Below are positions 10,753 through 53,452 of a stretch of 64,000 nt of DNA, piece after piece. The position numbers and the translations under genes are program-made. The notes beneath the pieces are model-generated. The model was not told the origin of the DNA and did not search any database. It worked only from the letters and a program-made list of their open reading frames with translations. Source of the stretch: Clostridiales bacterium (GTDB taxonomy: Bacteria; Bacillota; Clostridia; Oscillospirales; CAG-382); the NCBI GenBank assembly GCA_004553575.1, contig SFLA01000001.1, positions 30,521 to 94,520 on the forward strand, written 5' to 3'. Within the stretch, counting starts at the first letter, position 1. Every line of letters begins with the position of its first letter.

Positions 10753-10762
10753 GAACATAAAT

Positions 10763-11902: not shown

Positions 11903-11927
11903 CACATACATATTCGGAATATAAAAA

Positions 11928-11953
11928 AGAAGGCTTTGCAGGGAAAAGCCTTC
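11928..11953. terminator. bidirectional rho-independent terminator between tgt and proS
   Basis: AGAAGGCTTT-gcaggga-AAAGCCTTCT hairpin flanked by an A-run on the left and TTT on the right. Confidence 0.7.
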
Positions 11954-11967
11954 TTTGATGTAGACGT

Positions 11968-13916: not shown

Positions 13917-16169
13917 ATGAAAAAACGCAGACTGCTCGCCGTTGTTACGGCGGCGATACTGCTGCTTGCTTTAATACCGCAGGCTGTGCTCGCCGATCCG
14001 ACCGATCCCGGCACATCCGACGACGTCCCGACGGAGGTAAGCGAAACTTCCGGCACCGCCGAATCGTTTACCGTAACCGTGGCATGCTCCGCGGGCGGCG
14101 GATACTCGGTTTCCGGCAACGACGGGGGAAGACCCAGCCAGCACCAGTACTATTTCTTCAGCGGAGACACCGCGACCATAACCCTTAAGCCGCAGAGCGG
14201 ATACGAGATCGCCTCGGTCACCGTCGGAGGCAGCCCCGTTACCCCGACCGACGGAGTTATATCCTTCACGGTCAGCTCGGATGTTACGGTCGCCATTACC
14301 TATTCCGAAATACATATAGAGACCCATACCGTCTCCGTAACCGTGGTTGACGGCTCCGGAGCGCCGGTGGACGGCGCGGTTATAACCGTAAACGGCGCCG
14401 AGGTTTCCGGAAGCACGGATATCGCAGACGGCACCTCGATAACCGTCGCCTTCGCGGCAAAGCCCGGTTACGAGCTGGTAAAGACAAAAATGATTGTAGG
14501 CGGGGTCGAGCTTAACTGCACCAACCCCTATTCGACCGATCTTGACGGCGACATCACCTTCAAGGCCGTGGTAAACGAAATCGAGACCTATAACGCGGAA
14601 GTAACGGTCGGGGAAAACGGTTACCTTATGATAAACGGAATCTCCGTTACCGAATCCGGCACCGTGCTTATTCCGCAGAGCGGCGAGACCGTGATAACCC
14701 CCGTCCCGGCGGAGGGCTATATGCTGTCGTCGCTGACAGTCAACGGACACGAGGTTCCGGCAGGCTATTCCTTCACACCCGACGGCGACTGCACGATAGA
14801 GGTCAGCTTCGAGGTCGAGAAGGTTTACTGCAAGATCACCCTTTCGGCGGGCACCGGCGGTTCGATAACCGTTAAGGACAACGCCTACGAGATCGACGGC
14901 CGCTATGTATACGTGCCGCAGGGCGAAAGCATAACCTTCGTGTTCAAGCCCAATGTCAATTACGAGCTTAATACCGTAAAGGTGAGCGGAAAGACCGTAA
15001 CCGTTTCCGACGGCGAATACACGCTTGAATGCACCGAAACCGCCGCGACCGTGTCCGCGACCTTCAAAAGCGTCGGCGGAGACGAGCCCACGGTATACAC
15101 CATAACCGCTTACGCAGGCACCGGCGGTTCGATATCGCCGAGCGGTACCAACACGGTGGACGAGGGTGATTCCTTAACCTTCACCGTAACCGCTTCCGAG
15201 GGCTACGAGATATACTCCGTTCAGGTCAACGGCGAGGACGTCACTCTGTCCGGAGGCACCTACACCTTCAAAAACGTATCTGCCAACGCAGTGATATCCG
15301 CCTCGTTCAGGAAGAAGGCCACCTCCGACACCGCAAATCCGATAACGGTCGACGATATCGATTGGACGACCGACAAGATAACCATAGACGTAAGCGTTAA
15401 GCCGAATATAGAAAAAGCGGTGTTTGACTATGCGGCGCAGAACTTCCCCGAAAAGAACATAGTTATATCCGATACAGAATTCACTCTCACCATTCCCGCG
15501 GGAAGCGGATTTTCGGTCAGCGGAAACACCGTATCCTTCGATTTTTCCCGCAACGGCGGCAGTAATTTCCTTTCCATTCAGGACGCGGTGGCGATAGAAT
15601 ATCCCGACGCGGCGTTTTCGGTCATTTCCTGCTCGGCTCCCACCCTTCCGGCGGGCACCGTGCTCGACATATACCTGGGCTCCGATTTTTCAGGATATTC
15701 GCTGCTCCCCCTCTCGTATGCGGGCGGCAATCTGACGGTGTTCGGCGACGCGGTTGACGCCGACGACAAGGGATGGGTATCCGTGCCCTACTCCAACCAG
15801 ACCGACCTCGTACTGGTCGAGACCGAGAGCGATAAATTCACCCTTATCGTTACCTACAACACCGAGGGCGGAACCGTCGATCCCAGCGGCACCGTAAAGG
15901 TCGCCCCGGGCGAAACAAAGACATTTACCATAACCCCGAACGAAGGCTATAAGCTGTCCTCCTTCACCGTGGACGGAACGGATATGACCGGCAGCGCCGT
16001 TGACGGCGTATACAGCGTCGTTATGGACGCGGATCACACCGTAACTGTAGTCTTTACCGCTGTATCCTCCGGCAATGCCGGGCTGGTTGTTGCTCTCGTA
16101 ATAATCGCGCTGGCGATTATCGGCGGAGCCGCGCTGTTCGTGGTAAAATGGAGAAAGAACCAGTTCTGA
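13917..16169 (+). CDS. tail-anchored cell-surface protein with ~6 divergent InlB-B-type repeats
   Basis: Signal peptide MKKRRLLAVVTAAILLLALIPQAVLA. Repeated ~75-85-aa modules ending in ...GY(E/K)L..V.V(N/G)G......Y.F....D.T..V.F. C-terminal TM LVVALVIIALAIIGGAALFVV followed by KWRKNQF. No LPXTG motif. Confidence 0.7.
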   Translation: MKKRRLLAVVTAAILLLALIPQAVLADPTDPGTSDDVPTEVSETSGTAESFTVTVACSAGGGYSVSGNDGGRPSQHQYYFFSGDTATITLKPQSGYEIASVTVGGSPVTPTDGVISFTVSSDVTVAITYSEIHIETHTVSVTVVDGSGAPVDGAVITVNGAEVSGSTDIADGTSITVAFAAKPGYELVKTKMIVGGVELNCTNPYSTDLDGDITFKAVVNEIETYNAEVTVGENGYLMINGISVTESGTVLIPQSGETVITPVPAEGYMLSSLTVNGHEVPAGYSFTPDGDCTIEVSFEVEKVYCKITLSAGTGGSITVKDNAYEIDGRYVYVPQGESITFVFKPNVNYELNTVKVSGKTVTVSDGEYTLECTETAATVSATFKSVGGDEPTVYTITAYAGTGGSISPSGTNTVDEGDSLTFTVTASEGYEIYSVQVNGEDVTLSGGTYTFKNVSANAVISASFRKKATSDTANPITVDDIDWTTDKITIDVSVKPNIEKAVFDYAAQNFPEKNIVISDTEFTLTIPAGSGFSVSGNTVSFDFSRNGGSNFLSIQDAVAIEYPDAAFSVISCSAPTLPAGTVLDIYLGSDFSGYSLLPLSYAGGNLTVFGDAVDADDKGWVSVPYSNQTDLVLVETESDKFTLIVTYNTEGGTVDPSGTVKVAPGETKTFTITPNEGYKLSSFTVDGTDMTGSAVDGVYSVVMDADHTVTVVFTAVSSGNAGLVVALVIIALAIIGGAALFVVKWRKNQF

Positions 16170-16195
16170 TAATACGAACCGATATACCCGATTTT

Positions 16196-16234
16196 CCCCT
16201 GCAGACATACCTTGTCTGCGGGGGAAGCCTTTTT
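16196..16234 (+). terminator. rho-independent terminator after the surface-protein gene
   Basis: CCCCTGCAGAC-atacctt-GTCTGCGGGGG hairpin followed by a T5 run shortly downstream. Confidence 0.6.
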
Positions 16235-16296
16235 GAACGACCGCGCAAATGCGCCTGTATACGACCTTTTAAAACCGATTATATGCCGCCGTATTA

Positions 16297-16325
16297 TTGA
16301 CACGACGGCATTTATTTGTTATACT
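16297..16325 (+). promoter_or_regulatory. sigma-70-type promoter of the 16.3-29.6 kb operon
   Basis: TTGACA (16297-16302), 17-nt spacer, TATACT (16320-16325). Confidence 0.55.
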
Positions 16326-16340
16326 TGACAATGAGATTTT

Positions 16341-17570
16341 ATGCGGAACGGGGGCAATTTCGCTGTGAATGACTTCGGTCTTACGGACATACTCAGAGCT
16401 GTGGTCAGCGGCGGCGAAGCCGCTTTGCCTTCCGATACTTACGGCTGGGAGGAGCTGTACGACATGGCCGCGGCTCATTCGCTGCTTCCGGTCGTGTTCG
16501 CCGAGGCGGCGGACAAGCCCCGGTTCCTGGAGCTCGACGGGGCTCACCGTGCACGCTGGCGCGCCGATTCGCTTGCCGTGATAAGCGAGCAAACCAGGCG
16601 TACCGCCGAATATTCGCTTATAATACCGAGACTCGAAGCGTCCGGGATCCCGTATGTGCACGTGAAAGGCCTGATCTGCCGGTCTCTGTACCCGATTCCC
16701 GATTCCAGGTATTCCGGAGACGAGGACATTCTGGTGTCCGCCGAGCATGCGGAGGAATGCCGGAGGATATTCGAGGACTGCGGCATGGTTGCCGTCGGCC
16801 GTACCGACAGTTCGGTACTCACCTGGCTCGACCGGCGAAGCGGACTGCGTATCGAGCTTCATGCGGGAGAACTTTTCGCCGGGGGAATACTCGCAGAGTA
16901 TAACCGTTATTTCGTATCCATGCTCGATCGCCGAAAGCAGTATTCCGCATGCGGGATTACCCTTTCGACCCTGCCGGAGACCGTTCATCTGCTTTACCTC
17001 CTGCTGCATGCCTACAAGCATTTTCTCGGACCCGGGTTCGGTCTCAGGCAGATAACCGACATTTCGCTCTTTGCAAAGACCTTTGACGGCGTTATTGACT
17101 GGGACGGGCTTCTTATTCCGGTGGCAGGCACCCCGGCAGAGCGGTTCTGCCGCGCCGTTATCACCGTCTGTGTGAAAAAGACCGGGCTTACCGGCGGAGC
17201 GGAATCGATTGCGGACGAGCGCATATGCGCCGAGCTTTATTCGGACATACTCGATTCCGGTGTTTTCGGAAGATCCTCGCTGTCGAGAGCGCACTCCGCG
17301 GGAATGACCGTGTCCGCGTCGCTTTCAACGGGAAGTCCGCTGCTGTGTACGCTGTTCCCGCCTCTTTCGGCAATGCGCAAGCGGTACGCGTTTGTTGACA
17401 AATGCCCTTTTCTGCTCCCAGTGGGCTGGATATACAGAATGCTGTGCTATGCGGTGGAAATACACGCCGACCGCAGGCGCGGCACCGACAATTCCGCCGG
17501 AAAGAGCCTTAAACTCGGCAGGGCGAGAGTGAAAATGATGAGAAAATATGGATTTATCGACCGGAAGTAA
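16341..17570 (+). CDS. uncharacterised nucleotidyltransferase-family protein (PF14907/NTP_transf_5-like)
   Basis: 409 aa. An N-terminal ~120 aa precedes ...IPYVHVKGLICRSLYPIPDSRYSGDEDILV (G..D.D nucleotidyltransferase-fold signature). No TM segments. The start is uncertain: ATG 16341 has a weak RBS and GTG 16365 is an alternative. Confidence 0.55.
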   Translation: MRNGGNFAVNDFGLTDILRAVVSGGEAALPSDTYGWEELYDMAAAHSLLPVVFAEAADKPRFLELDGAHRARWRADSLAVISEQTRRTAEYSLIIPRLEASGIPYVHVKGLICRSLYPIPDSRYSGDEDILVSAEHAEECRRIFEDCGMVAVGRTDSSVLTWLDRRSGLRIELHAGELFAGGILAEYNRYFVSMLDRRKQYSACGITLSTLPETVHLLYLLLHAYKHFLGPGFGLRQITDISLFAKTFDGVIDWDGLLIPVAGTPAERFCRAVITVCVKKTGLTGGAESIADERICAELYSDILDSGVFGRSSLSRAHSAGMTVSASLSTGSPLLCTLFPPLSAMRKRYAFVDKCPFLLPVGWIYRMLCYAVEIHADRRRGTDNSAGKSLKLGRARVKMMRKYGFIDRK

Positions 17571-19221
17571 ACTGCCGCTTATAAAACAAATGTGGCGCGA
17601 GCTCAGATGGATGCTCGGATATGCGAAGGGATATCGCGGAGTTATTGTACTGACTCTGGCGCTCGGCGCCGTATCGGTGCTGTTCGGGCTCGGCTCGTCG
17701 CTCGCGTCCAAATATCTGCTCGACAGCGTTATCGGACGGAATCCGGGCTCGCTCGCCGTATTCGCCGCCGCAATGGGAGCCTGCATGCTCGCTTCGGTCG
17801 CGGTAAGAGCCGTTTCGTCACGCGTAAGCGGCGTTGCCGGCGTTAAGCTGAAGCAAAAGGTCCGCTCCGACGTGTTCCGCCGCATAATGGTGTCGCGCTG
17901 GGAGCCGCTGCACGAAAAGAAATCCGGCGATCTTCTTGCGCGGGTGCTGTCGGATTCGTCCTCGGTGTCCGGAACGGTACTGTCCTTCGTCCCGTCGGCC
18001 GGAGCCGCGGGAATACAGTTTACGGGAGCGTTCGTTCTGCTGCTCATATACGATCCGGTAATGGCGCTTATCGCGCTGCTCTGCGCGCCCGTATCGGTGC
18101 TGTTTTCGCGGCTGTGGATGCGGAGGATGCGGCGGTCGGACGACCTGCTCCGCAAAACCGACGGCGAGATTTCGGCATACTGCTCGGAAGCGCTCGCGGG
18201 GATAGACACGGTTAAGTCCTTCGGGATATACCGGCTGTTCGTCCGAGGTCTGGAAAAGCTGCACTCACGTTATTTTTCCTGCTATGAAGGGTATAACCGT
18301 CTTACCGTAACAGCCTCCGCCGCCATGTCGGTAATGGGCATACTGGTATACGCCGCATGCTTTGCCTGGGGAGTGTACCGTCTGTGGACGGATCCCGAGA
18401 TATACACCTACGGTACTTTTACACTGTTTCTGGGGCTGGCGTCGTCGCTCCGCGGATCGTTTTCGTCGCTCGTTTCGGCAGTGCCGTCACTGATATCCGC
18501 AACGGCGGGAGCAGGCAGAATAATGGAAATATTCGATCTTGACGCCGAGCCCGACCCGCACGAGATGACCGAAAGCACCTACGGAGTGCGGGCGGAGGGG
18601 GTTTGCTTTTCCTACGACGGACGGCGCAGGGTGCTTGACGGCTTTTCGCTTACTGCCGACCCCGGCGAGGCGATTGCGGTCACCGGGTCATCCGGCAGCG
18701 GAAAAACCACTCTTATGCGGCTTATGCTCGGACTGGCGGATTTCGAAGGCAGGATTGTACTCGTGACGCCCGACGGCACCGAGATACCCGTGTCCGCCGC
18801 GACGCGCCGGGCATTTGCGTACGTACCGCAGGGCAACACCGTGTTCGCCGGCACCGTCGCGGAGAATCTGCGCATGGTTAAGGAAGACGCTACCGACGAG
18901 GAGATAGTCTCGGCACTGAAAAAGGCGTGCGCCTACGGATTCGTTTCCGAAATGCCGGGCGGTATAAACGCGGTTATCGGCGAGAAGGGAGCAGGCATAT
19001 CCGAGGGACAGGCGCAGAGAATAGCCATTGCACGCGCGCTTCTGTGCGATGCCCCGGTAATACTGCTTGACGAGGCGACATCTGCACTGGATTCCGCGAC
19101 CGAGCGGAAGATCATGGATTCGATTGCGGCAGAGGGAGGACGCACCTGCATACTGTCGTCCCACCGCGGTCAGGTCATAGAAAGCTGCACCCGCACATAT
19201 AGAGTCGGAGAGCCGTTATGA
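17548..19221 (+). CDS. ABC exporter, fused permease/ATPase (type I exporter fold)
   Basis: Six-TM N-terminal half. Walker A GSSGSGKTT, signature ISEGQAQR, Walker B ILLDEATSALD, H-loop SSHR. No C39 peptidase domain. Overlaps the upstream gene by 23 nt. Confidence 0.85.
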   Translation: MDLSTGSKLPLIKQMWRELRWMLGYAKGYRGVIVLTLALGAVSVLFGLGSSLASKYLLDSVIGRNPGSLAVFAAAMGACMLASVAVRAVSSRVSGVAGVKLKQKVRSDVFRRIMVSRWEPLHEKKSGDLLARVLSDSSSVSGTVLSFVPSAGAAGIQFTGAFVLLLIYDPVMALIALLCAPVSVLFSRLWMRRMRRSDDLLRKTDGEISAYCSEALAGIDTVKSFGIYRLFVRGLEKLHSRYFSCYEGYNRLTVTASAAMSVMGILVYAACFAWGVYRLWTDPEIYTYGTFTLFLGLASSLRGSFSSLVSAVPSLISATAGAGRIMEIFDLDAEPDPHEMTESTYGVRAEGVCFSYDGRRRVLDGFSLTADPGEAIAVTGSSGSGKTTLMRLMLGLADFEGRIVLVTPDGTEIPVSAATRRAFAYVPQGNTVFAGTVAENLRMVKEDATDEEIVSALKKACAYGFVSEMPGGINAVIGEKGAGISEGQAQRIAIARALLCDAPVILLDEATSALDSATERKIMDSIAAEGGRTCILSSHRGQVIESCTRTYRVGEPL

Positions 19222-19670
19222 GCGGAAGAATATACGACCGCGAGACGATCGAGCCTCTTGCCAGATCGCTGTTTGAGCTCGGCGAGCCGTTCCAGCTTAC
19301 GGTAACGGGCGGAAGCATGCTTCCGTTTCTGGCTCCTCACCGCGACACCGTGCTGCTTTCGCCGCCGACCCGCCGACCGAGACGCGGCGACATCCTTCTG
19401 TTCACGAGGGAGGACGGGAGCTGGGTCCTCCACCGCGTAAGAAGGGTGAAAAAAGACGGACTGTATATGATAGGCGACGCCCAGACGGTTACCGAGGGTC
19501 CCGTGCCCGAGAACCGGGTGCTGGCGACGGTGACGCGGGCGCGCATTAAAGGTAGGATAGTAACCCCGAGCAGTCCGCGCTGGATATTCTACCGCACGGT
19601 CTGGCTTGCCGCAATACCGGCGAGAAGGCTTATTTTCCGGCTTCGCGCCGCAATCCGGAGGAAAAAATGA
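19218..19670 (+). CDS. S24/S26-family (signal-peptidase/LexA-like) serine peptidase, 150 aa
   Basis: Nucleophile motif VTGGSMLPFL, then RRGDILLF...WVLHRVRRVKKDG (candidate general-base Lys). ATGA overlaps at both ends. Amphipathic or hydrophobic C-terminal tail. Confidence 0.55.
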   Translation: MSGRIYDRETIEPLARSLFELGEPFQLTVTGGSMLPFLAPHRDTVLLSPPTRRPRRGDILLFTREDGSWVLHRVRRVKKDGLYMIGDAQTVTEGPVPENRVLATVTRARIKGRIVTPSSPRWIFYRTVWLAAIPARRLIFRLRAAIRRKK

Positions 19671-20446
19671 AACCGCGTTTTATAGATATACACGCTCATA
19701 TACTCCCCGGGCTGGACGACGGCGCCGAAACGATAGAGGATTCGATTGAGCTGGCGCGGATAGCCGAGTCCAACGGAGTTGCGATAATCATTGCCACTCC
19801 GCACAGCTACGATCACAATTACGAGGGCAGCGGATTCGCCGAAGAGGTATGCGCCGCCGCCGAATACACACAGGAATGCATTAACGAAGCCGGTATAAAC
19901 GTAAAGCTGCTTACCGGGATGGAGATATTCGCCGACCGCGATACGCCGCGGCTGCTTAGATCGGGCGATCTGCTTCCGCTTGCGGGGACAAGATACGCGC
20001 TTACGGAGTTTTCGTTTGACGAGGAGCCGATCTGGGTGACCGACGTCCTGCGCGAGACCATTGCCGCCGGCTATATTCCGGTGATAGCTCACCCCGAGCG
20101 GTACAATTACGTCCGCGAGAACCCCGGCATAGCCTACAACTGGGTAAGGGGCGGCTGTCTGCTTCAGATAAACCGCGGGAGCCTTATCGGACGCTTCGGC
20201 CCCGATGCCCGCAGTACCGCTCTGCGGCTGCTTCGCCACGGTCTGGTATCATTTACTGCGACCGACGCGCATTCCCCGGTCGCACGGACCACCACCATGT
20301 CCGACGCATATGCCGAGCTTAAAAGCCTGTTAGGCTCCGCCGCAGCCGAAGAGCTTACCTGTACCAACGCAATAAAGCTTATACGCGGCGAAATAATAAC
20401 TCTTCCGAACGCGCGTCCCTTTTACAGCGGGACCGAAATATTCTGA
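19667..20446 (+). CDS. cpsB: PHP-family protein-tyrosine phosphatase (CpsB/YwqE type)
   Basis: N-terminal IDIHAHILPGLDDG, later PHS, HPERY and TDAH metal-binding motifs. 259 aa. Confidence 0.85.
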   Translation: MKPRFIDIHAHILPGLDDGAETIEDSIELARIAESNGVAIIIATPHSYDHNYEGSGFAEEVCAAAEYTQECINEAGINVKLLTGMEIFADRDTPRLLRSGDLLPLAGTRYALTEFSFDEEPIWVTDVLRETIAAGYIPVIAHPERYNYVRENPGIAYNWVRGGCLLQINRGSLIGRFGPDARSTALRLLRHGLVSFTATDAHSPVARTTTMSDAYAELKSLLGSAAAEELTCTNAIKLIRGEIITLPNARPFYSGTEIF

Positions 20447-20469
20447 ATCAACGGGGGTATTACGGCAAA

Positions 20470-21324
20470 GTGAAAAGAAAAAGGCTGGTACGCTTATCAT
20501 GCGTTGCCGCCGCGGTGCTGCTTGCATTCGGCGGATACGTATACTATACGCTCACCTCGGATTCGGGCGAACGTCCGGTTATTTCAATGGATTCCGACAC
20601 GATTACGATAAGCATTTCCGACGGCGAAAGCGCGATTATTAACGGAATTACCGCTTACGACGCCGAGGACGGCGACATTACCGGCAGACTGATATACGAA
20701 GGGCTTTCGGCGTTTTCCGAAGAAGGGGTATGTACCGCAACCTTCACTGCGGTCGATTCGGACGGTAACGTAAGCAAGGCGCAGCGGACGGTATTATTCA
20801 GCGATTACACCCCGCCGGTCTTTGCACTTAAAGCGCCTCTGACCTTCAGCTACGGATCGACAATGAATCTTTCCGATTATATACGGGCTTACGACTGTAT
20901 CGACGGCGACATTTCCGGCGGCGTACGCATTACGGTGACGGGATCGTCGGGCTCGCTTTCCGAGATAGGGGTGCACCCGGTGACCGTAAGGGTTACCAAC
21001 TCGAAGGGCGATACCTCCGAGCTTACGCTCGACGTCACGGTCGCACAGATCGATTCCGCGCAGAAACGTTACGCGCCGACGATAGAGCTCGGCGATTATC
21101 TCATTTACGTTGACGAGGGCGGAGCCTTCTCTCCCTCGGAGCTTATCGTATCGGTTACCGACGGAGATGTAAAATACACCGATTCCGCCCATATTTCGGG
21201 CGTGTCCTTCAGCGGAAACGTGAATACCTCCCGCCCGGGAGTGTACAGCGTCGAATACGAATACACCGGCGAAAAGGGTTATACAGGCACCGCAACGCTC
21301 GTGGTTGTGGTAACGGGTGAATGA
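20470..21324 (+). CDS. membrane-anchored protein with three Ig-like (DUF5011/HYR-like) domains
   Basis: GTG start. N-terminal TM LSCVAAAVLLAFGGYVYY. Repeated (A/V)YD..DGDI(T/S)G motifs (ITAYDAEDGDITG, IRAYDCIDGDISG, VSVTDGDV). Confidence 0.6.
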   Translation: MKRKRLVRLSCVAAAVLLAFGGYVYYTLTSDSGERPVISMDSDTITISISDGESAIINGITAYDAEDGDITGRLIYEGLSAFSEEGVCTATFTAVDSDGNVSKAQRTVLFSDYTPPVFALKAPLTFSYGSTMNLSDYIRAYDCIDGDISGGVRITVTGSSGSLSEIGVHPVTVRVTNSKGDTSELTLDVTVAQIDSAQKRYAPTIELGDYLIYVDEGGAFSPSELIVSVTDGDVKYTDSAHISGVSFSGNVNTSRPGVYSVEYEYTGEKGYTGTATLVVVVTGE

Positions 21325-22766
21325 TTATGGCTGAGATCACTGCTCAAAGCGAAAGCTCCTCCGTAGATATACGGACAATAATACGTGATATCATATCCGG
21401 CTGGTGGATAATACTGCTCGCCGTCGTCATCGCCGGCATGGGCTCTTTTATTGCCGTTACCGAGCTCTATTCGCCGGTCTACACCTCTACCGCGACCTAT
21501 GTCGTATCCGCCACCGGAAACACCGCAACGGTATATACCAACCTTTCCGCCGCACAAACGCTTGCCGACGCCTTTTCGAACGTGCTCAGCAGCAACATTA
21601 TGCGGAGAATAGTCTGCGATGATCTGGGAATAAGCTCGTTTGACGGCAAGATTTCCGCCGAGGTCGTATCCGAGACGAATATCCTTACCCTTACCGTTAC
21701 CGCCTCGCGTCCGGACACGGCGTATCTCGTCTGCCGGTCGCTTATGGAGAACCATTCCGAGGTTACCGACGCGATAATGTCAAACGCAATACTTCAGGTG
21801 CTGAAAAGCCCGTCGGTGCCTTCCTCGCCTTCGAACAAGCTGAACCGCCGCGGCACCGTTACAAAAGTAATGATCGCAGCAGCGATAGCCGCCGCTGCGG
21901 CGCTCGGCGCGGTATCGTACCTTCGCGACACCTGCAAAACCGAAAAAGACTTCACCGGAAAAATAGACGGTCAGCTTCTGGTAACGGTACATCACGAGCA
22001 GAAATACAAAACCCTCATCTCACGGATAAAGCACCCAAAGAAGGGCTTGCTGATTACCGATCCCACCACCGGGTTCCTGTTTACCGAATCCTTCAAAAAG
22101 CTTCGCACCAAGATCGAATACCGTCTTGCAAAAGAGGGCAAAAAGGTTATCGCGATAGGCAGCGTGCTTGAGAACGAGGGGAAATCAACGGTAGCCGCCA
22201 ACATCGCTCTGGCGCTGGCACAGAAGCACAGGAACGTCGTGCTTTTGGACGCCGATATGCGGCGCCCCGCCATACACAAGCTGTTTTCGACAGGCACCGG
22301 AGCCTTAGACCTCGCCGCCGTACTGACGGGGCAGATAAGCGCGGAGCAGGCGACCGTTACCGAGCCGAAGACCGGCCTTAAGATACTCTGCTGCGAAAAA
22401 ACTCCTCCGCGTGCCTATGACCTCGTGTCGTCCGATGCTATGCGTGAGCTGATAAACAAGCTGAAATCCGAAAACGATTTCGTGATTATCGACACCCCGC
22501 CCATGGCGGTGGCGTCCGACGCCGAGGCGATAGCGTCCTACGCCGACACCTCGATTCTGACCGTACGTCAGGGTGTGACCTATATACGCGACATCAACGA
22601 CGCAATAGACAATCTCCGTGACGCCGGCGGACTGCTCGGCTGCGTGTTCAACGACGTAAGGTCGTCTGCGATATCCGCCGGCTACGGTTACGGATACGGC
22701 TACGGTTACGGAAAAGCCGGTTACGGCAAATACGGCTACGGTGACCGGACTGCCGTGCGGGACTGA
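21321..22766 (+). CDS. fused Wzz-domain / BY-kinase polysaccharide co-polymerase (tyrosine autokinase), copy 1
   Basis: TM1, extracellular Wzz-like segment, TM2 (VMIAAAIAAAAALGAVSYL). Walker A ENEGKST, A' VVLLDADMRRP, B FVIIDTPP. C-terminal Tyr cluster GYGYGYGYGYGKAGYGKYGYG. Confidence 0.85.
   Translation: MIMAEITAQSESSSVDIRTIIRDIISGWWIILLAVVIAGMGSFIAVTELYSPVYTSTATYVVSATGNTATVYTNLSAAQTLADAFSNVLSSNIMRRIVCDDLGISSFDGKISAEVVSETNILTLTVTASRPDTAYLVCRSLMENHSEVTDAIMSNAILQVLKSPSVPSSPSNKLNRRGTVTKVMIAAAIAAAAALGAVSYLRDTCKTEKDFTGKIDGQLLVTVHHEQKYKTLISRIKHPKKGLLITDPTTGFLFTESFKKLRTKIEYRLAKEGKKVIAIGSVLENEGKSTVAANIALALAQKHRNVVLLDADMRRPAIHKLFSTGTGALDLAAVLTGQISAEQATVTEPKTGLKILCCEKTPPRAYDLVSSDAMRELINKLKSENDFVIIDTPPMAVASDAEAIASYADTSILTVRQGVTYIRDINDAIDNLRDAGGLLGCVFNDVRSSAISAGYGYGYGYGYGKAGYGKYGYGDRTAVRD
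22680..22743 (+). repeat. imperfect hexanucleotide (GGNTAC)n tract encoding the Gly-Tyr tail of BY-kinase 1
   Basis: ggctac ggttac ggatac ggctac ggttac ... ggttac ggc aaa tac ggctac ggt. Confidence 0.8.
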
Positions 22767-22781
22767 GGGGGTGAGCTGACA

Positions 22782-24290
22782 ATGAACGAACATAACAACT
22801 CCTCCGACCGGTTATCTTTATTCGATTTTCAGGATGTATTCAAGGGCGTTAGAAAGCTGCTGCCGCTGTTTCTTGCGCTGCTCGTGCTGATTTCCGCGGT
22901 ACTGTGCGCATATACCTACTTCAGCTACGTCCCGTATTACACTTCGACCGCGACCTTTACCATAACGCTTTCGGGAAGCTACGGATCCTCGAACAGCTTT
23001 TATTATTCGACCACCGCCGCACAGCTCGCAAAGACATTTCCTTATATACTGCAAAGCGGTACGCTCGGCGATATGATAGCCGCCGATCTCGGCACCGATT
23101 CGGTTCCGGGCAGTATAAGCGTGCATTCCCTGGAAAATACGAACATCTTCACCATGACCGTATCCTCGTCCGACCCGGAGAACGCCTACAGGGTGCTGAT
23201 GTCGGCAATAGACAATTATCCCGATCTGGCGCGGTTTGTCGTCGGCGACACCGTGTTCACTCTAATAAACGAGCCGGAGATACCGTCCTCGCCCGCCAAT
23301 TCACGTTCCTACCGCAGCGCCGTCCGCAATGCGCTGCTTATCAGCCTCGTGCTGTACGCTCTGGCGGTAACGCTGTACGTACTGACCAGATCCACGGTAC
23401 GCCGGACGGAAGATATAAAACGGATGCTTAACGTAAAGTGCATCGGTACGGTGCCGTTTGTCAAGCTTAAAAAGCGCGGCAAAAACGGCAGGAGCGAACC
23501 GATACTTATAACCAACAAGAAGCTGCCGCACAGCTTTTCGGAAGGTATACGGCTTATCCGCACAAAGCTCGAGCGGGAGGGCAAGGGAAAAACCGTGCTC
23601 GTAACCAGCGCCTGCGAAAACGAGGGGAAATCGACCGTCGCGGTCAATCTGGCGCTGTCGCTTGCCGAGAAGGGGTATCAGACCCTGCTTATAGACTGCG
23701 ACCTCAGGAACCCCTCCTGCGCGAAGATACTCGGCATCGGCGAACCGCCGGCGGGGCTCGGCGATTATCTCGCGGGAAAGGCTCCGCTCAGCAAGCTCGG
23801 CTTCAAGCTTACGGCAATGTCGGGGCTTATGCTTATCCCCGGCAGGGGAAATCTCGCGTCGGCTGCGGAATCGCTCGACACTTCCGCCATGAAGAAGCTG
23901 ATAGACTCCATGCGGAACTACGTCGATTTCATAATACTCGATACCACCCCCTGCGCGGTGATAACCGACGCGGCGGTGCTCGCAAAGCAGGCTGACGAGG
24001 CGGTGTTCGTAGTGCGTCAGGACTACGCGAGCAAGGACAGAATACTCGACGGTGTTTCCACCCTGTCCGAAAGCGGCGTTCCGATACTCGGCTGTGTGTT
24101 TAACGCAATGCAAAGCGGCGGAAGCGGATACGGCGGCTACTACGGAAGATATTCGTATTCGCGGTATGCATACGGGAGCTACGGAAGCCATTACGGCAAA
24201 TACAACGAAGCCGACTCCTCTGCCGACACGGATGAGCAACCCACGGTCGGCAGACCGGACGCCGACGCGGCAAATAACAAAAACCAGTAA
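22782..24290 (+). CDS. fused Wzz-domain / BY-kinase (tyrosine autokinase), copy 2
   Basis: Same architecture as copy 1. Walker A ENEGKST, A' TLLIDCDLRNP, B FIILDTTP. Tyr cluster GYGGYYGRYSYSRYAYGSYGSHYGKY followed by an acidic tail. GGGGGTGAG RBS before ATG 22782. Confidence 0.85.
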   Translation: MNEHNNSSDRLSLFDFQDVFKGVRKLLPLFLALLVLISAVLCAYTYFSYVPYYTSTATFTITLSGSYGSSNSFYYSTTAAQLAKTFPYILQSGTLGDMIAADLGTDSVPGSISVHSLENTNIFTMTVSSSDPENAYRVLMSAIDNYPDLARFVVGDTVFTLINEPEIPSSPANSRSYRSAVRNALLISLVLYALAVTLYVLTRSTVRRTEDIKRMLNVKCIGTVPFVKLKKRGKNGRSEPILITNKKLPHSFSEGIRLIRTKLEREGKGKTVLVTSACENEGKSTVAVNLALSLAEKGYQTLLIDCDLRNPSCAKILGIGEPPAGLGDYLAGKAPLSKLGFKLTAMSGLMLIPGRGNLASAAESLDTSAMKKLIDSMRNYVDFIILDTTPCAVITDAAVLAKQADEAVFVVRQDYASKDRILDGVSTLSESGVPILGCVFNAMQSGGSGYGGYYGRYSYSRYAYGSYGSHYGKYNEADSSADTDEQPTVGRPDADAANNKNQ

Positions 24291-24306
24291 CGAATCGGGA
24301 CCTGAA

Positions 24307-26277
24307 ATGAATGCAAAAAAAGCCGGAACGTCCACGCGGCGTCCCATCAACGCGCGCACAACGCGAATAATACTTCTTATGATCGCGGATGCCGCGATTG
24401 TAAACCTGGCAGCGTTCCTTTCGCTTATGCTGCGAATGGAATTCAATTTATCCGAGCTTGTCGAATGCGGATTCCTTGACAGTATGCTGTCATACGCACC
24501 GCTGAACACCGTAACGGCTCTGATTATAATACTGCTGTTCGGGCTTTACGACAGCATGTGGGAGTTCGCCGGGGTGGACGAGCTTATTAACTCAATCTTT
24601 GCGGCGCTCTGTATTTCCGCCTCGAACCTTGTCGGTATGTTCTGCTTCGGAATGATCCGCGGCAGCAAGCTGTTCGAAAGCCCCGTAACCTCCGCATGGG
24701 ACCTTATCACGAAGGTGTTCACCGTCGCGGAGATGCCGAAAAGCTTCCCGGCGATCTACATACTGGTGCTTATTGCCGGTATCGGCGGGGCGAGACTTTC
24801 CTACCGGCTTATACGGCGCAAAAAGCATATGCTGGGTCAGAACGTCGTGCGCACCATGGTAATCGGTGCGGGCAGAGCGGGCGCGATAGTCATACGCGAC
24901 CTTACGAGCAGCTCGCTGAGCGACAACCGCGTGGTGTGCATTATCGACGACGACCCCTCCAAGCTGGGCGCAAAAATCTACGGCGTTAAGGTGGTCGGCG
25001 GCAGCGATACGATAAAAGAGAACGTAAAAAAATACGGTGTCGACGAGATTCTGTTTGCAATACCCACGGCGAGCGCGTCCCGCCGCAGGGAGATACTCGG
25101 CATCTGCTCCGAGACGGGATGTCAGCTTAAAATCCTCCCGGGACTGTACCAGCTTGCCAGCGGAGAAGTCCGCATTGAGAAGCAGCGTGAGGTACGTATT
25201 GAAGACCTGCTCGGGCGGGACAGCGTTAAAATCGACCCTGCCGGTGTAAGCAGCACAATATGCGGCATGACTGCGCTGGTCACCGGAGGCGGCGGCTCCA
25301 TCGGCAGCGAGCTCTGCCGGCAGATAGCCGCTTGCTCGCCGAAAAAGCTGATCGTTTTCGATATTTACGAAAACAACGCCTATGCGATACAGCAGGAGCT
25401 GCTCCACGCTTATCCTAATCTGGATCTTACGGTGCTTATCGGATCGGTAAGAGACGTCAACAGGGTTAACGAGGTGTTTTCGCTCTACCGTCCGGATCTC
25501 GTCTTCCACGCCGCCGCGCACAAGCACGTTCCGCTTATGGAAAGCAGTCCGCTCGAGGCGGTCAAAAACAACGTCTTCGGAACGCTTACGGTCGCCCGCG
25601 CCGCCGATAAATACGGCACCCGCAGAATGTGTCTTATATCGACGGACAAGGCGGTCAATCCGACCAACGTAATGGGCGCCACCAAGCGGATATGCGAAAT
25701 GATTGTCCAATACATGGACGGAATCAGCAAAACCGATTATGTGGCGGTGCGGTTCGGAAACGTGCTCGGCAGCAACGGAAGCGTTATCCCGCTGTTCCGC
25801 CGGCAGATAGCCTACGGCGGTCCGGTCACGGTCACGCACAAGGATATAACCCGTTTCTTTATGACCATTCCCGAGGCGGTTTCACTTATACTCCAGGCGG
25901 GCGCCTTTGCGCAGGGCGGCGAAATATTCGTGCTTGACATGGGCGAGCCGGTTAAAATCGATACTCTTGCGCGCAATATGATACGGCTTTCGGGATATGA
26001 GCCGGACGTGGATATAAAAATCGTCTATACAGGTCTCCGCCCGGGAGAGAAGCTGTACGAAGAGGTGCTGATATCGGGCGAGGGCAACAAAAAGACCGAA
26101 AACGAGCTGATATTTATACGGGAGCCGCTGCAGTTCAGCTCCGAAAAGCTGCTCGACGGGCTTGACAAGCTGCATTCGCTGTCAGATACCGCACCCGTGT
26201 CGGAGGTAAAGCATGCGCTCGCCGATCTGGTCGATACCTACACGCCGGACGAGCGCGAAGAATCGGCGGCAAAATGA
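24307..26277 (+). CDS. membrane-bound CapD/PglF/WbpM-type nucleotide-sugar 4,6-dehydratase
   Basis: ATG 24307; ORF-track start 24052 overlaps the kinase gene. Four N-terminal TM segments. Rossmann motifs VIGAGRAG and VTGGGGSIGSE, plus the conserved STDKAVNPTNVMGATKR segment. Confidence 0.85.
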   Translation: MNAKKAGTSTRRPINARTTRIILLMIADAAIVNLAAFLSLMLRMEFNLSELVECGFLDSMLSYAPLNTVTALIIILLFGLYDSMWEFAGVDELINSIFAALCISASNLVGMFCFGMIRGSKLFESPVTSAWDLITKVFTVAEMPKSFPAIYILVLIAGIGGARLSYRLIRRKKHMLGQNVVRTMVIGAGRAGAIVIRDLTSSSLSDNRVVCIIDDDPSKLGAKIYGVKVVGGSDTIKENVKKYGVDEILFAIPTASASRRREILGICSETGCQLKILPGLYQLASGEVRIEKQREVRIEDLLGRDSVKIDPAGVSSTICGMTALVTGGGGSIGSELCRQIAACSPKKLIVFDIYENNAYAIQQELLHAYPNLDLTVLIGSVRDVNRVNEVFSLYRPDLVFHAAAHKHVPLMESSPLEAVKNNVFGTLTVARAADKYGTRRMCLISTDKAVNPTNVMGATKRICEMIVQYMDGISKTDYVAVRFGNVLGSNGSVIPLFRRQIAYGGPVTVTHKDITRFFMTIPEAVSLILQAGAFAQGGEIFVLDMGEPVKIDTLARNMIRLSGYEPDVDIKIVYTGLRPGEKLYEEVLISGEGNKKTENELIFIREPLQFSSEKLLDGLDKLHSLSDTAPVSEVKHALADLVDTYTPDEREESAAK

Positions 26278-27152
26278 AAAAAGGAGCAGAAATGACCGCG
26301 TTTTTAACAGTCGTATTAATACTGCTCGTATATGCGGTTTTCTCGGTCGCCGTTTCGTACGCTTCGGTCGAGACTTCACGAAACGAGCTTACGCTTAAGG
26401 GCATTACCGACGAAGCAGTCATCGTTCTTATCAGCGATCTTCACGGCAGAGAAGTCGGGCGCGGGAATTCAAAGCTTATATCGGCGGTAAAAGCCGCCGG
26501 TCCTGACGCCGTCTGTCTTACCGGAGACTTTATAGACGTCGGCGACAGCGAACGGGATATAGATGAATTCTGCAGTCTGGTAAGCGCTCTGTGCGGGATC
26601 GCGCCGGTATATTACAGCTACGGCAACCATGAGATGCGCCGTATCGCAAACGGCGGGGACGACTTTTCGGACAAAATATCCGCCGCAGGTGCCAAATTGC
26701 TCGAATGCTCATACACGGACGTGAATATCAACGGTCAGACGGTGCGTATCGGCGGAATGTACGGAAGCGGATTCGTTACGGAAAACGAGCCTGAGGGATC
26801 GGACGAGGCGAGACGATACTGCTTTCTTACCGAATTCACCGCATGCGAGTACCCGACTTTGCTTCTGTCGCACTGCCCGGATTCCTTCGTTATCGGCTCC
26901 GAAGAGGCGGACTGGGAGATAGGACTGATATTATCGGGTCACGTTCACGGAGGACTGTGGCGTCTGCCGATCGTCGGCGGGCTGGTATCGCACTCCGAAG
27001 GGCTGTTTCCCGTGCACGATAAGGGAATGTTTGCGCTCGGGCGCTCACACATGGTTATAACATCGGGTCTTGCGGGGAGCGGGTGGATACCGCGGCTCGG
27101 CAACCCCGGAGAGATTACCGTAATAACACTGAAACCGGAGAACACAAAATGA
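26274..27152 (+). CDS. membrane-anchored metallophosphoesterase (calcineurin-like)
   Basis: N-terminal TM. Motifs ISDLHG, TGDFID, GNHE, SGHVHGG. ATGA overlap with the upstream gene. Confidence 0.8.
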   Translation: MKKGAEMTAFLTVVLILLVYAVFSVAVSYASVETSRNELTLKGITDEAVIVLISDLHGREVGRGNSKLISAVKAAGPDAVCLTGDFIDVGDSERDIDEFCSLVSALCGIAPVYYSYGNHEMRRIANGGDDFSDKISAAGAKLLECSYTDVNINGQTVRIGGMYGSGFVTENEPEGSDEARRYCFLTEFTACEYPTLLLSHCPDSFVIGSEEADWEIGLILSGHVHGGLWRLPIVGGLVSHSEGLFPVHDKGMFALGRSHMVITSGLAGSGWIPRLGNPGEITVITLKPENTK

Positions 27153-29536
27153 AAAAACTTTTATCCGCAATACTTTTAACCGCAATTATCGGAGGAATTC
27201 TTATGACCGGCTGCAGCAATACCGGAAAAACCGTTAACGCCGCCCTCGGGGCTCCCTGCTTCACCGGAAGCGGATGCGTATACGAGGGCAGTCTGTCCGC
27301 GATTACCGACGGAAACGAAAAAACCTCCGCCGTTATCCGCCCCGACCCGGATTACGCATCCGAGCTGACCTTCGGCGATTGGTACGGAAATTCGCATACC
27401 GAGGCGCTTCCCGCAGGAAGAATTGCCGTCACCGTCGATCTCGGCTTTATCACCGCCGCGGAGAAGATAACCGTAACCGGCGAATATTCCGGAGCCGTAA
27501 AGGTTTATCTGTCCGACGACGGATACAATTTCACAAAATATCTCGGTGAATTCGGCGAAAAGACCATACCGGTCAATTCGGATGTCAAGGCGGTAATGCT
27601 TACCTTCGAATCCGGCGAAATCACTTTAAGCGAAATCGCGGTTACCGGAATCCGTACCGCCGAGAAGGTGCTGCTGTCGTCCGGCTGTTCGTATGAGTGG
27701 GAGGGCACCCGAATGACCGCTTACTCGGATGCCGGCACCGAGCTTACCGACGGTATATACTTTGAGAAGAACGACGATGAAAACACCGATGCGCTTTCCG
27801 GCCGCACCTCTCACGAGGAGGACGGGCTGACCGGAAAATACGGCAATGTTATAACCGTCGATCTCGGAAGTATAAAGAACGTGTCCGAAGTGTCCTTCGG
27901 CGCATATCTCGCACGGGGCGGAAAATCGCTCGTTCCCGACCGCATTGACGTAAGATATTCGGCTGACGGAGAAGCCTGGACGGATTTCGGGCAGAGCTTT
28001 CTGGTTTCGCGCTCCGGGGCGTCCGAGGATTGCTCAAACCGTTATTTCGTAACACGCGCATATACGGTCGAGGCAAGATACATAAGAATCTTCACTTATG
28101 CAGACGGACTTTTCTGCACCGATGAAATCGAGATTTACGGCTGCAAAACCGCGGTGGCCGAGCCCGGATACAGCCGCCCCGCCGCCGTCGAAAGCCTTAC
28201 CGACACCGCCGCCGGCTGCGAAGCGCTGATCAACGGCACCCCCGCCTCCGCGCTTACGGATCTGATCTTCACTGCCGGAGTTCCCGCCGGAGGCAGTTCG
28301 ACCGTTAAAATCAACCTCGGAAAGACTACCGGTATAACCGGAGTCTGTGTAGTATGCGACGGCGAAATAACGGGAATATCCTCAGCCGCGGAGGGCAAAG
28401 CCCTTTACACCGAGGCGGCGGGAATATACACCGCCTACCTGCTGTTCGGCGAAGCCGTAACCGCCGACGAAATAGAGATATCCTTCAACTGCAGCGGAAA
28501 CGTGCTTGAGGCGGAGGCGTTCTCCGGCGCCGCACAGCTTCCCGCAGTGAGCGGCGGATTCTTCCAGCTACCCACCAACGGAGGCGGTAACGTCGCCGCG
28601 CAGAACAGCGAATACAGCTGGTTCCTGCAGCTCAAGGGAATGCACGATCTCGGAATGAGCGTGGTTGTAATACAGTATTCCACCCACTTTATTGCCAAAA
28701 CGACCCTTATAAACGGCAGGCATCTTGCCGACGCAGGATACACCTACACGGCGACCTACGGCTGTGAGGACGTTTGCCGGGCGGTGCTCGACGCCGCGGC
28801 GAAGCTCGGAATGAAGGTATATATCGGCACAATACACGACGCCGATTTCACCGATCCTGCGGCAAACACCGCTCAGTACAAAGCGATAGTCGAGGATTCA
28901 AAAGCGTCGATAAACGACATTTACGAGCTTTATTCCTCGCACCCGGCGTTCGGCGGCTATTACCTGTCCGACGAGACCTGTGATCACTGGCTCAACCTGA
29001 ACGGCGGAGTCGAGGCATGCCGATCGGTATACGAGGGGCAGTCCGAATACATCCGCTCGATCGACGGCGACGCTTCGATAATGATCGCCCCCGCAATCTG
29101 GCGTTCCGGCGATCCCGCTGCCGGTGCGGACAATCTGTACGAAATGCTTAAGCCGTCCGAGGAAGGCGGTAAGCCGGTGGTCGACATCGTCGCCGTGCAG
29201 GACTGCCTCGGCAGAGAGCTTTCGCTTACGGTAAGCGACGAGGCTTACTCCGCATGGCTCGAACGCTGCGAGCTCTGGGCAAAGGCGATAAGAAAAGCGG
29301 GAGCCGAGTTCTGGCACGACGCCGAGGTGTTCGAAATCACCTCAACCTCAAAGCGCTTCCCGGAGATAAAAAAATCGCTTGCGCTCCAGGCGCCGATATC
29401 CGGCGGGATAATCGTCTTTGATATTCCGCACTACTTCTCTCCCTGCCCCATGACCGGGATAAACGATCCGTACGGCGATTACAAGCGCCGCATTATGACG
29501 GAATATATCGAGTATTATTCGTCGCTCACCGAATAA
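27149..29536 (+). CDS. lipoprotein with discoidin (F5/8 type C)-like domains and a C-terminal DUF4434-like glycoside-hydrolase-type domain
   Basis: ATG 27149 overlaps the upstream stop (ATGA). Lipobox ILMTGC. Two regions resemble carbohydrate-binding discoidin domains (..ITDGNEKT.., ..LTDGIYFE..). C-terminal ~330 aa (WFLQLKGMHDLGMSVVVIQYS...) resemble DUF4434. Domain calls are from memory of these families. Confidence 0.5.
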   Translation: MKKLLSAILLTAIIGGILMTGCSNTGKTVNAALGAPCFTGSGCVYEGSLSAITDGNEKTSAVIRPDPDYASELTFGDWYGNSHTEALPAGRIAVTVDLGFITAAEKITVTGEYSGAVKVYLSDDGYNFTKYLGEFGEKTIPVNSDVKAVMLTFESGEITLSEIAVTGIRTAEKVLLSSGCSYEWEGTRMTAYSDAGTELTDGIYFEKNDDENTDALSGRTSHEEDGLTGKYGNVITVDLGSIKNVSEVSFGAYLARGGKSLVPDRIDVRYSADGEAWTDFGQSFLVSRSGASEDCSNRYFVTRAYTVEARYIRIFTYADGLFCTDEIEIYGCKTAVAEPGYSRPAAVESLTDTAAGCEALINGTPASALTDLIFTAGVPAGGSSTVKINLGKTTGITGVCVVCDGEITGISSAAEGKALYTEAAGIYTAYLLFGEAVTADEIEISFNCSGNVLEAEAFSGAAQLPAVSGGFFQLPTNGGGNVAAQNSEYSWFLQLKGMHDLGMSVVVIQYSTHFIAKTTLINGRHLADAGYTYTATYGCEDVCRAVLDAAAKLGMKVYIGTIHDADFTDPAANTAQYKAIVEDSKASINDIYELYSSHPAFGGYYLSDETCDHWLNLNGGVEACRSVYEGQSEYIRSIDGDASIMIAPAIWRSGDPAAGADNLYEMLKPSEEGGKPVVDIVAVQDCLGRELSLTVSDEAYSAWLERCELWAKAIRKAGAEFWHDAEVFEITSTSKRFPEIKKSLALQAPISGGIIVFDIPHYFSPCPMTGINDPYGDYKRRIMTEYIEYYSSLTE

Positions 29537-52729: not shown

Positions 52730-53360
52730 TAAAGCGAATGAAAAAATGGCGGCACGGAGCGTAGACCTTGCGGCTTACGGTCAAGTAGGGTTTCCCCGCG
52801 GCCTGCTTCTCGTCGCCGATAAAGCGGTTCCCCATTAAAGGCCGGGTCGGAGCGTTACCGCATCCGCGACTTGATTGCCTATGAGTCCGCACTGTAATCC
52901 GTCCCATGCCAGTTCCCCCAGCGGGAACAACAGTCTAGGAGATTTCCTCAATAGCAGCAGAACATTCTTTTATCCTCTTTTGCAGACATGATTTCAAGCG
53001 CTATTATTCGGGACAGTTAGCTACACTCCCCCGACCTGAACGCTATCCGCCATGCCCACTCAAGGCCGGCTACATCTATCCACAGCATCAGTCTATGGTC
53101 TGTACCGCATGATAGGTCTAATCTTAATCCCGTAGCCCCGCGCCAGTATAACCGCGGTCGGCCACAGGAAAAAGCCTCCAAGGAAAGAGGGACGCTTGCC
53201 CCATGCCATTGGGGTCGCCCGCAGTCCTATATCTCCCAGCACCCACCCTGCACTGGGCGTACAAAGCAAGCACCAGAAGCTTCATCGATTTGCCGTTCGA
53301 CGTATTTTTAGGCACGCCTTCAAAAATGCAGTGCTAACTAGAATACTGCGCCATTCCGAT
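52730..53360 (-). ncRNA. ole: probable OLE (ornate, large, extremophilic) RNA; boundaries approximate
   Basis: 745-nt gap (52708-53452) without a credible ORF inside an otherwise tightly packed operon. Dense GC-rich hairpins on the minus strand. Context ispA-gap-4TM protein-dxs-tlyA-nadK-argR-recN matches the published OLE context. No covariance-model search was run. Confidence 0.65.
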
Positions 53361-53452
53361 TATTAATATACCATACTTCTGCATAAAATCAAGGGGATAG
53401 GCAAAAAAATATTCAGCATATCCCCGCTATATTCAGTATTTATCGTATTTTT

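Follow-up and report, generated by a model that had tools for sequence, protein, structure and literature searches.

Linear polyphosphorylated peptides (LPPs) are a family of peptides that are synthesized ribosomally and modified post-translationally (RiPPs), described by Popov et al. (Nat Commun 2026, PMC13381572) and exemplified by the lppAKBSDN cluster of Paenibacillus alginolyticus. The core LPP set, located in capsule loci, comprises the SpI peptidase LppS, the RiPP recognition element (RRE) protein LppB, the HprK-like kinase LppK, the uncharacterized NTP transferase LppN and the MsbA-like pump LppD. LPP precursors carry the motif YxxPxVLxHQxIxFET|xxS; Ser3 is polyphosphorylated by LppK, and the leader is removed by LppS, for which LppB is required in vitro and whose activity is abolished by S29A, H68A or D93A. 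LppN was silent in a heterologous host, and the biological role of LPPs was not established (PMC13381572). In the biosynthesis of pseudomycoidin, the PF14907-type enzyme PsmN is needed for addition of a hexose onto phosphoserine, and its DxD motif is essential (PMC6993621). Lasso clusters of the paeninodin kind typically contain PF14907 genes and ATP-binding cassette (ABC) pumps (PMC6993621), and LPP clusters are often found beside them (PMC13381572). Here we analyze three consecutive genes in a 64,000-nt stretch of contig SFLA01000001.1 from a Clostridiales bacterium (positions 30,521 to 94,520; hereafter the window). These genes, which we call the trio, encode a nucleotidyltransferase (NTase), an ABC exporter and a soluble peptidase resembling LppN, LppD and LppS, respectively.

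We consider it probable, at roughly 0.6, that the trio makes up the N, D and S parts of a RiPP cassette related to the LPP type and most likely acts on a precursor encoded elsewhere in the genome. Homology, conservation of catalytic residues, synteny and domain fusions point to this assignment. An initial annotation of the window had proposed for the trio the tasks of tailoring, export and leader cleavage in a peptide system with no visible substrate gene. That proposal is supported by the published LPP enzyme set, by fusion proteins and by related loci that hold PqqD, kinase, radical SAM (rSAM) and precursor genes beside the same trio. The annotation had also offered an alternative, in which the trio would act on the polysaccharide machinery; this may be so, although direct evidence in its favor was not found.

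The three genes lie on the plus strand and overlap in series, by 23 nt between the NTase and exporter genes and through an ATGA between the exporter and peptidase genes. A further ATGA overlap joins the peptidase gene to the next gene, which encodes a CpsB-type phosphatase. The initial annotation had described this layout and a TTGACA-17-TATACT site ahead of it, and both agree with the open reading frame (ORF) coordinates and with the match to the promoter consensus (Table 1). The promoter-like site occupies the sole sizeable intergenic gap. Its −10 hexamer ends 15 nt upstream of the ATG of the NTase gene, leaving room for a leader of ~7 to 9 nt without a clear Shine-Dalgarno sequence, and the mRNA would therefore be near-leaderless; either the trio is transcribed in this form or the true promoter lies elsewhere. 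Upstream of this site is the best terminator-like hairpin of the region from 13.5 to 27 kb of the window. It separates the trio from a plus-strand gene (13917-16169) encoding a 750-aa secreted protein with InlB B-repeat (Flg_new_2) repeats and a C-terminal transmembrane (TM) anchor. The gene order of the window is not an assembly artifact, because it is repeated in an independent metagenome contig (L090) that is 99% identical.

The first protein belongs to PF14907 (NTP_transf_5), as the initial annotation had supposed, scoring 136.8 bits against the hidden Markov model (HMM; cut-off, 31.2) and covering profile positions 4 to 245 of 249. An alignment of 30 homologues shows no variation at K109, G110, S125, D127, D129, E172 or H174. 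The segment YSGDEDILV carries S125, D127 and D129 and has the Pol-beta-type metal-binding motif G[GS]…DxD. An AlphaFold2 model (pLDDT 85.7) has the Pol-beta NTase fold and matches LnuA, ANT(2''), TM1012, MenT3 and FKRP. These fold-search matches are generic Pol-beta NTases only (E about 1e-3), and a search of the NTase profile against PDB sequences found no solved close relative. The link between PF14907 and lasso or other RiPP clusters, which the initial annotation had stated, is correct (PMC6993621). Separately, most NTase homologues at ~34% identity (P0047-P0151; L091/L092 10001-11734) also carry a fused VanZ-like domain (PF04892). Their contexts are unrelated, with mobile-element and restriction genes adjoining, and they are uninformative for the trio; the published LPP co-occurrence table also includes VanZ.

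The second protein proved to be a type I exporter without a C39 domain, as had been noted. Its Walker A, signature and Walker B motifs are all intact, its TM domain begins at residue 35, and searches found neither a C39 match nor an N-terminal peptidase domain.

The third protein scores 28.4 bits against PF00717 (Peptidase S24-like; cut-off, 23.3). Two features that the initial annotation had ascribed to it, an S24/S26-type serine nucleophile and the lack of a membrane anchor, hold up; its catalytic lysine does not. The proposed Ser/Lys dyad with K78 or K79 (RVRRVKKDG) was ruled out, both lysines being variable in 28 close and 85 wider homologues, and the 85-member family alignment contains no other invariant lysine. 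In contrast to these lysines, S33 (85/85), H72 (84/85), D87 and E93 are invariant in 84 to 85 of the 85 family members, in agreement with the alignment of the 28 close homologues. A direct search of the peptidase sequence against the PDB returned noise only. The family profile matched human SEC11A/C best, pairing Ser33 with the SEC11 nucleophile and His72 with the SEC11 histidine. Because S33 and H72 are invariant and align with the serine and histidine of SEC11, and because the lysines vary, we assign the peptidase to the S26B Ser-His enzymes. It is 23% identical to LppS (E 6e-11; hhalign probability, 97.8%), with S33 equivalent to S29, H72 to H68 and E93 to D93; the counterpart of LppS D93 is an invariant glutamate, and D87 is invariant too. 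We regard Ser33, His72 and Glu93 as the candidate catalytic residues.

Other features of the peptidase bear on where it would act. The AlphaFold2 model (pLDDT 89.7) shows a LexA/signal-peptidase barrel. The protein has no TM anchor (maximum 19-residue Kyte-Doolittle hydropathy, 1.07), and its catalytic domain is therefore cytoplasmic. The C-terminus (residues 120 to 149) is a basic amphipathic helix in which W122, W129 and R136 are invariant. Against TIGR02228 (archaeal-type signal peptidase I) the protein scores 29.9 bits, below the cut-off of 51.85; this score and the lack of a TM segment together mark it as a homologue of signal peptidases and not as a housekeeping enzyme of that class. An Anaerocolumna member of cluster 4 in the sequence similarity network (SSN) of Popov et al. 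is 41% identical to it (PMC13381572).

The three genes might instead be unrelated operon-mates, namely, an NTase of a generic kind, an ABC exporter for lipids or drugs and either a self-cleaving LexA/S24-like Ser-Lys regulator or a housekeeping signal peptidase. Such an explanation would suit the "Peptidase S24-like" Pfam match and the exporter's top NCBIfam matches, which are MsbA/CydDC-type and every one far below cut-off. It is nevertheless hardly credible, given that the lysine is not conserved and that the peptidase has no DNA-binding domain or TM anchor. It is already contradicted by the synteny and fusion data given below, in which linkage of the three families is conserved over many gene orders and recurrent domain fusions join them.

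To place the trio in context, we surveyed the peptidase family, which has 364 representatives (50% identity level) at E ≤ 1e-30. A genome scan identified 183 peptidase loci, mostly in metagenome-assembled genomes (MAGs) of Oscillospiraceae, Ruminococcus and Lachnospiraceae and in a few isolates, and 80 of these were retrieved; the best genome matches were 46 to 48% identical. Neighboring genes were mapped with family HMMs on six-frame translations within ±10 kb of the peptidase, and loci flanked by 8 kb or more on either side (40 in all) form the full-flank set. BY-kinase (bacterial tyrosine kinase) or CpsB genes are present in 32 of these 40 loci, as is an orthologous ABC exporter, and the Ig-like protein encoded downstream of cpsB in the window has counterparts in 29. 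PF14907 NTases and PqqD proteins occur in 23 loci each, rSAM/SPASM enzymes and an HprK-like protein of ~296 aa in 22 each and candidate precursors in 16. Exopolysaccharide (EPS) and RiPP markers are found together in 21 full-flank loci. The fullest version, seen for example in L061, reads LuxR, NTase, 151-aa protein, rSAM/SPASM, PqqD, PqqD, 137-aa protein, rSAM/SPASM, ScmC/HprK-like, ABC, S26, CpsB, Ig, BY-kinase, BY-kinase. Where a locus has both a peptidase and an ABC gene, they are within 400 nt of each other in 44 of 55 cases. The set is kept together through at least five gene orders (for example, NTase-Ig-BY-kinase-BY-kinase-S26-CpsB in Ruminococcus), and the linkage therefore survives rearrangement.

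In gut Clostridia, the N-D-S cassette is kept in synteny with a CpsB/Ig-like/two Wzz-BY-kinase/CapD operon, to which it is translationally coupled in the window. The initial annotation had called for a comparison of homologous neighborhoods: the linkage is conserved, and both CpsB/BY-kinase and RiPP genes accompany the peptidase. Its view that coupling to BY-kinase signaling is unusual must be set aside in light of the 32 full-flank loci above, and linkage to BY-kinase genes had already been noted for LPP and paeninodin clusters of Bacilli (PMC13381572).

Peptidase genes were also seen in smaller settings. In L023, L030, L033, L039 and L051 (~10001-12300), from MAGs labeled Prevotella, Prevotellaceae or Bacteroidaceae, the peptidase gene is followed by an ABC exporter gene only, without any EPS-regulatory or RiPP marker inside 10 kb; these loci represent minimal pairs of peptidase and exporter or else Clostridial contigs that were mis-binned. 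In L002 (7874-10447), and also in L003 and L004, a solitary peptidase homologue is divergent from genes for a 555-aa protein, a SCIFF peptide and its radical SAM maturase, and ABC, NTase and EPS genes are absent from these loci.

Candidate precursors in the related loci adjoin PqqD, rSAM/SPASM and HprK-like genes. Overall they are 80 to 150 aa long and combine [Y/W]xxP…FE leaders with Cys-containing variable cores and a C-terminal serine; no Pfam or NCBIfam model matched these families. Two of the families, of 130 to 150 aa, share the N-terminus M..K.W..P....VQ.FE.NEYVAAC and a variable middle. The C-terminal serine is found in 16 of 16 members of one of them, and the other ends in …HPNRS. A third family, of ~80 aa, begins MKPYVKPEL..ESFEL and ends …INS, and its start resembles that of one Paenibacillus LppA (MKPYVKP…FET). 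The most candidate paralogues in one locus (L035) number four, accompanied by three rSAM genes. The HprK-like family has the P-loop LHS…G.AILF.GPSG.GKST, and its best PDB matches, which are weak, are HPr kinases.

Fusion proteins connect these activities directly. Among the 149 best representatives of the peptidase family, 16 are fused to a PF14907 domain (including P0164, P0169, P0178, P0188 and P0261), and two are fused to an ABC exporter (P0199 and P0190; P0199 consists of peptidase, TM domain and nucleotide-binding domain). One is fused to an HprK-like protein (P0179; hhalign probability, 100%) and one to CpsB (P0235). These natural fusions argue strongly that one substrate would be shared by the NTase, kinase, peptidase and exporter families.

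The window itself was searched for the remaining cassette genes with tblastn, with HMMs built from the related loci and with a leader regular expression. No PqqD, HprK-like kinase, rSAM/SPASM enzyme or member of the precursor families was found in the 64 kb, and no match was better than E 0.2, so that the absence of a precursor and of PqqD reported in the initial annotation stands. The lone leader-expression match (58452-58703, minus strand) was dismissed, as it has no supporting features. Small ORFs in 16100-16400 overlap the terminator or the promoter and have no leader motif, and an Rfam scan upstream of the trio found no leader RNA or riboswitch.

The same gene content bears on whether the trio could be the accessory part of a lasso-peptide cluster of the paeninodin/pseudomycoidin type, in which a PF14907 gene and an ABC pump are expected and near which LPP clusters often lie. 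We think this very unlikely. Among the ORFs of the window that carry a Pfam annotation, a set that does not exhaustively cover smaller ORFs, there was no lasso macrolactam synthetase, no B2 cysteine protease and no B1 RRE, and lasso genes are not among the recurrent neighbor families of the 80 related loci. In addition, the leader peptidase of the window is of the SipW type, the hallmark of the LPP branch outside the lasso peptides.

Several observations weigh against assigning the trio to an LPP-related cassette. The 64-kb window is without PqqD, an HprK-like kinase, a SPASM rSAM enzyme or a precursor-like ORF, and 11 of the 32 EPS-linked loci have no RiPP markers within 10 kb. Three of these 11 loci (L072, L047 and L015) hold the NTase, ABC and peptidase set as in the window, and in L005 and L082 the peptidase stands alone beside CpsB; EPS-linked loci of this kind fit a function in the EPS module at least as well. 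The RREs beside the closest published relatives of the peptidase, in SSN cluster 4, were classed as "other" and not as LPP, with no precursor there, and this clade was left unanalyzed by the authors (PMC13381572). Because LppS requires its RRE for cleavage in vitro, the lack of an RRE may leave the trio inactive or make it work differently. Finally, the chemistry of the NTase is unproven, since LppN was inactive in a heterologous host.

These loci raise the possibility, which we consider tentative and on balance unlikely, that the module is retasked or a relic. The genome would then encode no peptide substrate, and the peptidase, alone or along with the exporter and NTase, would be kept to serve the CpsB/BY-kinase module. 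The peptidase might cleave one of the components of that module; alternatively, BY-kinases and CpsB might stand in, for phosphorylation and dephosphorylation, for the HprK-like kinase of other loci. Peptidase and CpsB are indeed the most persistent pairing, lying less than 400 nt apart in 38 of the 57 loci that have both. They are ATGA-coupled in the window and in L005, which has no ABC, NTase or RiPP marker within 8 to 10 kb. Furthermore, RiPP markers are absent in a polyphyletic pattern from loci with an intact peptidase, and the candidate catalytic residues do not vary in any locus, those free of RiPP markers included. However, no candidate cleavage target was identified, the sole CpsB fusion could be a frameshift artifact across the ATGA overlap, and the NTase, ABC and kinase fusions bind the peptidase to RiPP enzymes. 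The related loci were covered to ±10 kb only, and among the LppS genes tabulated in the published dataset are some whose RRE and precursor are encoded at other places in the genome (PMC13381572). These split LPP clusters would provide a precedent for action of the trio in trans.

For an LPP-related cassette acting in trans, published work on LPP and pseudomycoidin is the basis on which we infer how the steps are ordered, what chemistry they involve and that this organism has a peptide substrate. The precursor, bearing a [Y/W]xxP…FE leader, would be phosphorylated on serine, and the phosphate would be decorated further by the PF14907 enzyme. The leader would then be cut off by the Ser33/His72/Glu93 peptidase, cytoplasmic and membrane-proximal and probably docked at the ABC exporter, which would pump the product out. 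All steps would be co-expressed with the capsule/EPS regulators. It is quite doubtful that the trio remains in place, lacking an RRE, kinase and precursor of its own, because it has been absorbed into tyrosine phosphoregulation, with BY-kinases and CpsB taking over control of phosphorylation and either a phospho-glycosylated peptide signaling to or priming exopolysaccharide or the peptidase processing a component of the kinase module. If this were true, LPP/paeninodin-type RiPPs would gain a long-missing role, the control of capsule or biofilm.

The trio is not categorically new, because the LPP enzyme set and its capsule-locus location are already published (PMC13381572). Targeted literature searches found no paper on RiPPs combining rSAM, HprK and NTase enzymes or on a signal peptidase with PqqD and a tyrosine kinase. 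Nor did they find the Clostridial sister clade, its rSAM/SPASM enzymes, the large putative precursors, the Glu-for-Asp substitution, the peptidase fusions, the tight CpsB/BY-kinase wiring or the recurrent reduced trio. On the role of LPP/paeninodin-type phosphorylated RiPPs, Popov et al. could only note their location in capsule loci (PMC13381572). The window and ~80 related loci reveal a sister-clade leader peptidase of gut Clostridia that is hard-wired to CpsB/BY-kinase genes by translational coupling, conserved adjacency and one fusion, and that can persist there after loss of the remaining cassette. The placement of these RiPPs in capsule loci thereby becomes a testable question, for which complete cassettes are available in isolate genomes of Merdimonas faecis BR31 and Dorea sp. 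YH-dor226. The family is also extended by rSAM/SPASM enzymes, by unusually large putative precursors and by an S26-ABC fusion analogous to C39 peptidase-containing ABC transporters (PCATs).

Table 1. Coordinates of the trio, its control elements, the downstream operon and candidate precursors. Positions are those of the window unless a locus is named.
Feature	Position	Strand	Support
Intrinsic-terminator-like hairpin, 3' of surface-protein gene	16193..16227	+	15-pair stem, 8 GC pairs, T-rich tail
Sigma-70-type promoter-like site, TTGACA-17-TATACT, TG extension	16297..16325	+	11/12 matches
PF14907 nucleotidyltransferase, LppN/PsmN-like, 409 aa	16341..17570	+	Pfam E 1.3e-39
MsbA-like half-size ABC exporter, LppD-like, 557 aa	17548..19221	+	PF00664 + PF00005
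Soluble SipW/Sec11-type (S26B) peptidase, LppS-like, 150 aa	19218..19670	+	PF00717 E 1.5e-6
CpsB-type PHP phosphotyrosine phosphatase	19667..20446	+	PF19567 E 2.4e-58
Membrane-anchored Ig-like domain protein	20470..21324	+	PF16403 E 1e-16
Fused Wzz-like/BY-kinase 1, Tyr-rich tail	21321..22766	+	TIGR01007 136.9 bits (above cut-off); PF02706
Fused Wzz-like/BY-kinase 2, Tyr-rich tail	22782..24290	+	TIGR01007 140.4 bits
CapD-like polysaccharide biosynthesis dehydratase/epimerase	24307..26277	+	PF02719 E 4e-119; start inferred as first ATG past kinase 2
Calcineurin-like metallophosphoesterase, overlapping CapD-like gene	26274..27152	+	PF00149 E 1.3e-11
DUF4434/F5_F8 type C protein, final same-strand gene before convergent U32 peptidase gene	27083..29536	+	Pfam annotation
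Candidate precursors	L035 1184-8525; L038 2895-3413, 5573-5965; L061 2950-3405, 5515-5928		
Candidate precursors	L024 17676-17927; L067 15266-15499; L078 15315-15563		

Downstream of the trio, the region 19667-29536 contains regulatory and peripheral genes only, with no glycosyltransferase, flippase or polymerase gene. Both BY-kinases carry Walker A, A' and B motifs, and the second is 31% identical to the first; fused and duplicated Wzz-kinases are atypical for Firmicutes. The ATP synthase operon lies beyond the convergent U32 peptidase gene. The remaining genes of the window have housekeeping functions (MiaB-like rSAM, MutS, MutL, TGT, ProRS and others). Metallophosphoesterase genes such as the one that overlaps the CapD-like gene recur in published LPP neighborhoods (PMC13381572, supplement). 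Far from the trio, the sole Rfam match in the window is a full-length OLE (Ornate Large Extremophilic) RNA (52730-53370, minus strand; 399 bits, threshold 50), flanked by genes for a polyprenyl synthetase (53453-54316) and DXP synthase (50301-52133), with the exonuclease VII large subunit gene at 54530-55723.

Among described systems, the LPP clusters are the most informative comparison. The window encodes the same three enzyme families, an NTP transferase, an MsbA-like pump and a soluble archaeal/SipW-type Ser-His leader peptidase of ~150 aa. The candidate catalytic positions of the peptidase and its Ser-to-His spacing are as in LppS, and the setting is likewise a capsule/EPS locus, with related Clostridial loci having an RRE, an HprK-like kinase and YxxP…FE leaders. 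The window differs in the low identity of its peptidase to LppS, in having Glu93 as the putative acid in place of Asp93 and in having no RRE, kinase or precursor. The Clostridial relatives differ from LPP clusters in carrying one or two extra rSAM/SPASM enzymes and in their specific linkage to CpsB, an Ig-like protein and two fused Wzz-BY-kinases. Their putative precursors contain cysteine, are 80 to 150 aa long and end in serine, whereas LPPs use Ser3 of the core.

The paeninodin and pseudomycoidin systems (PadeK/PsmK kinase, PsmN and PsmD; PMC6993621) share with the window a PF14907-type enzyme and an ABC exporter. Their phosphorylation site is a C-terminal serine, and the candidate precursors of the related loci suggest the same. 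Unlike these systems, the window has no macrolactam synthetase or B2 protease among its Pfam-annotated ORFs, and its leader peptidase is an S26B serine enzyme and not a cysteine protease. With Bacillus subtilis SipW and eukaryotic SEC11 the peptidase shares the SGSM(E/L)P nucleophile box and the (V/L)HR(V) histidine box; it differs in having no TM anchor and a cytoplasmic catalytic domain. PCATs likewise couple leader removal to export, and in the two S26-ABC fusions the S26 domain is N-terminal, as C39 is (P0199). The exporter of the window has no fused peptidase, however, and the protease is of the serine S26B type and not a C39 cysteine enzyme. Expanded sister loci with two rSAM/SPASM enzymes, PqqD homologues and an ScmC-like protein recall the SynChlorMet cassette (ScmC-F, TIGR04248-04251), for which no precursor is known either. 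All of the sister-locus matches are far below cut-off, and the window has none of these genes. Compared with CpsB/CpsC/CpsD of the Streptococcus pneumoniae type, the modulator and kinase of the window are fused and duplicated, an Ig-like membrane protein is inserted and the genes of polysaccharide assembly named above are missing; the two arrangements nonetheless have in common a CpsB PHP phosphatase and BY-kinases with Tyr-rich tails, which in the window are encoded directly downstream of the trio in the same operon.

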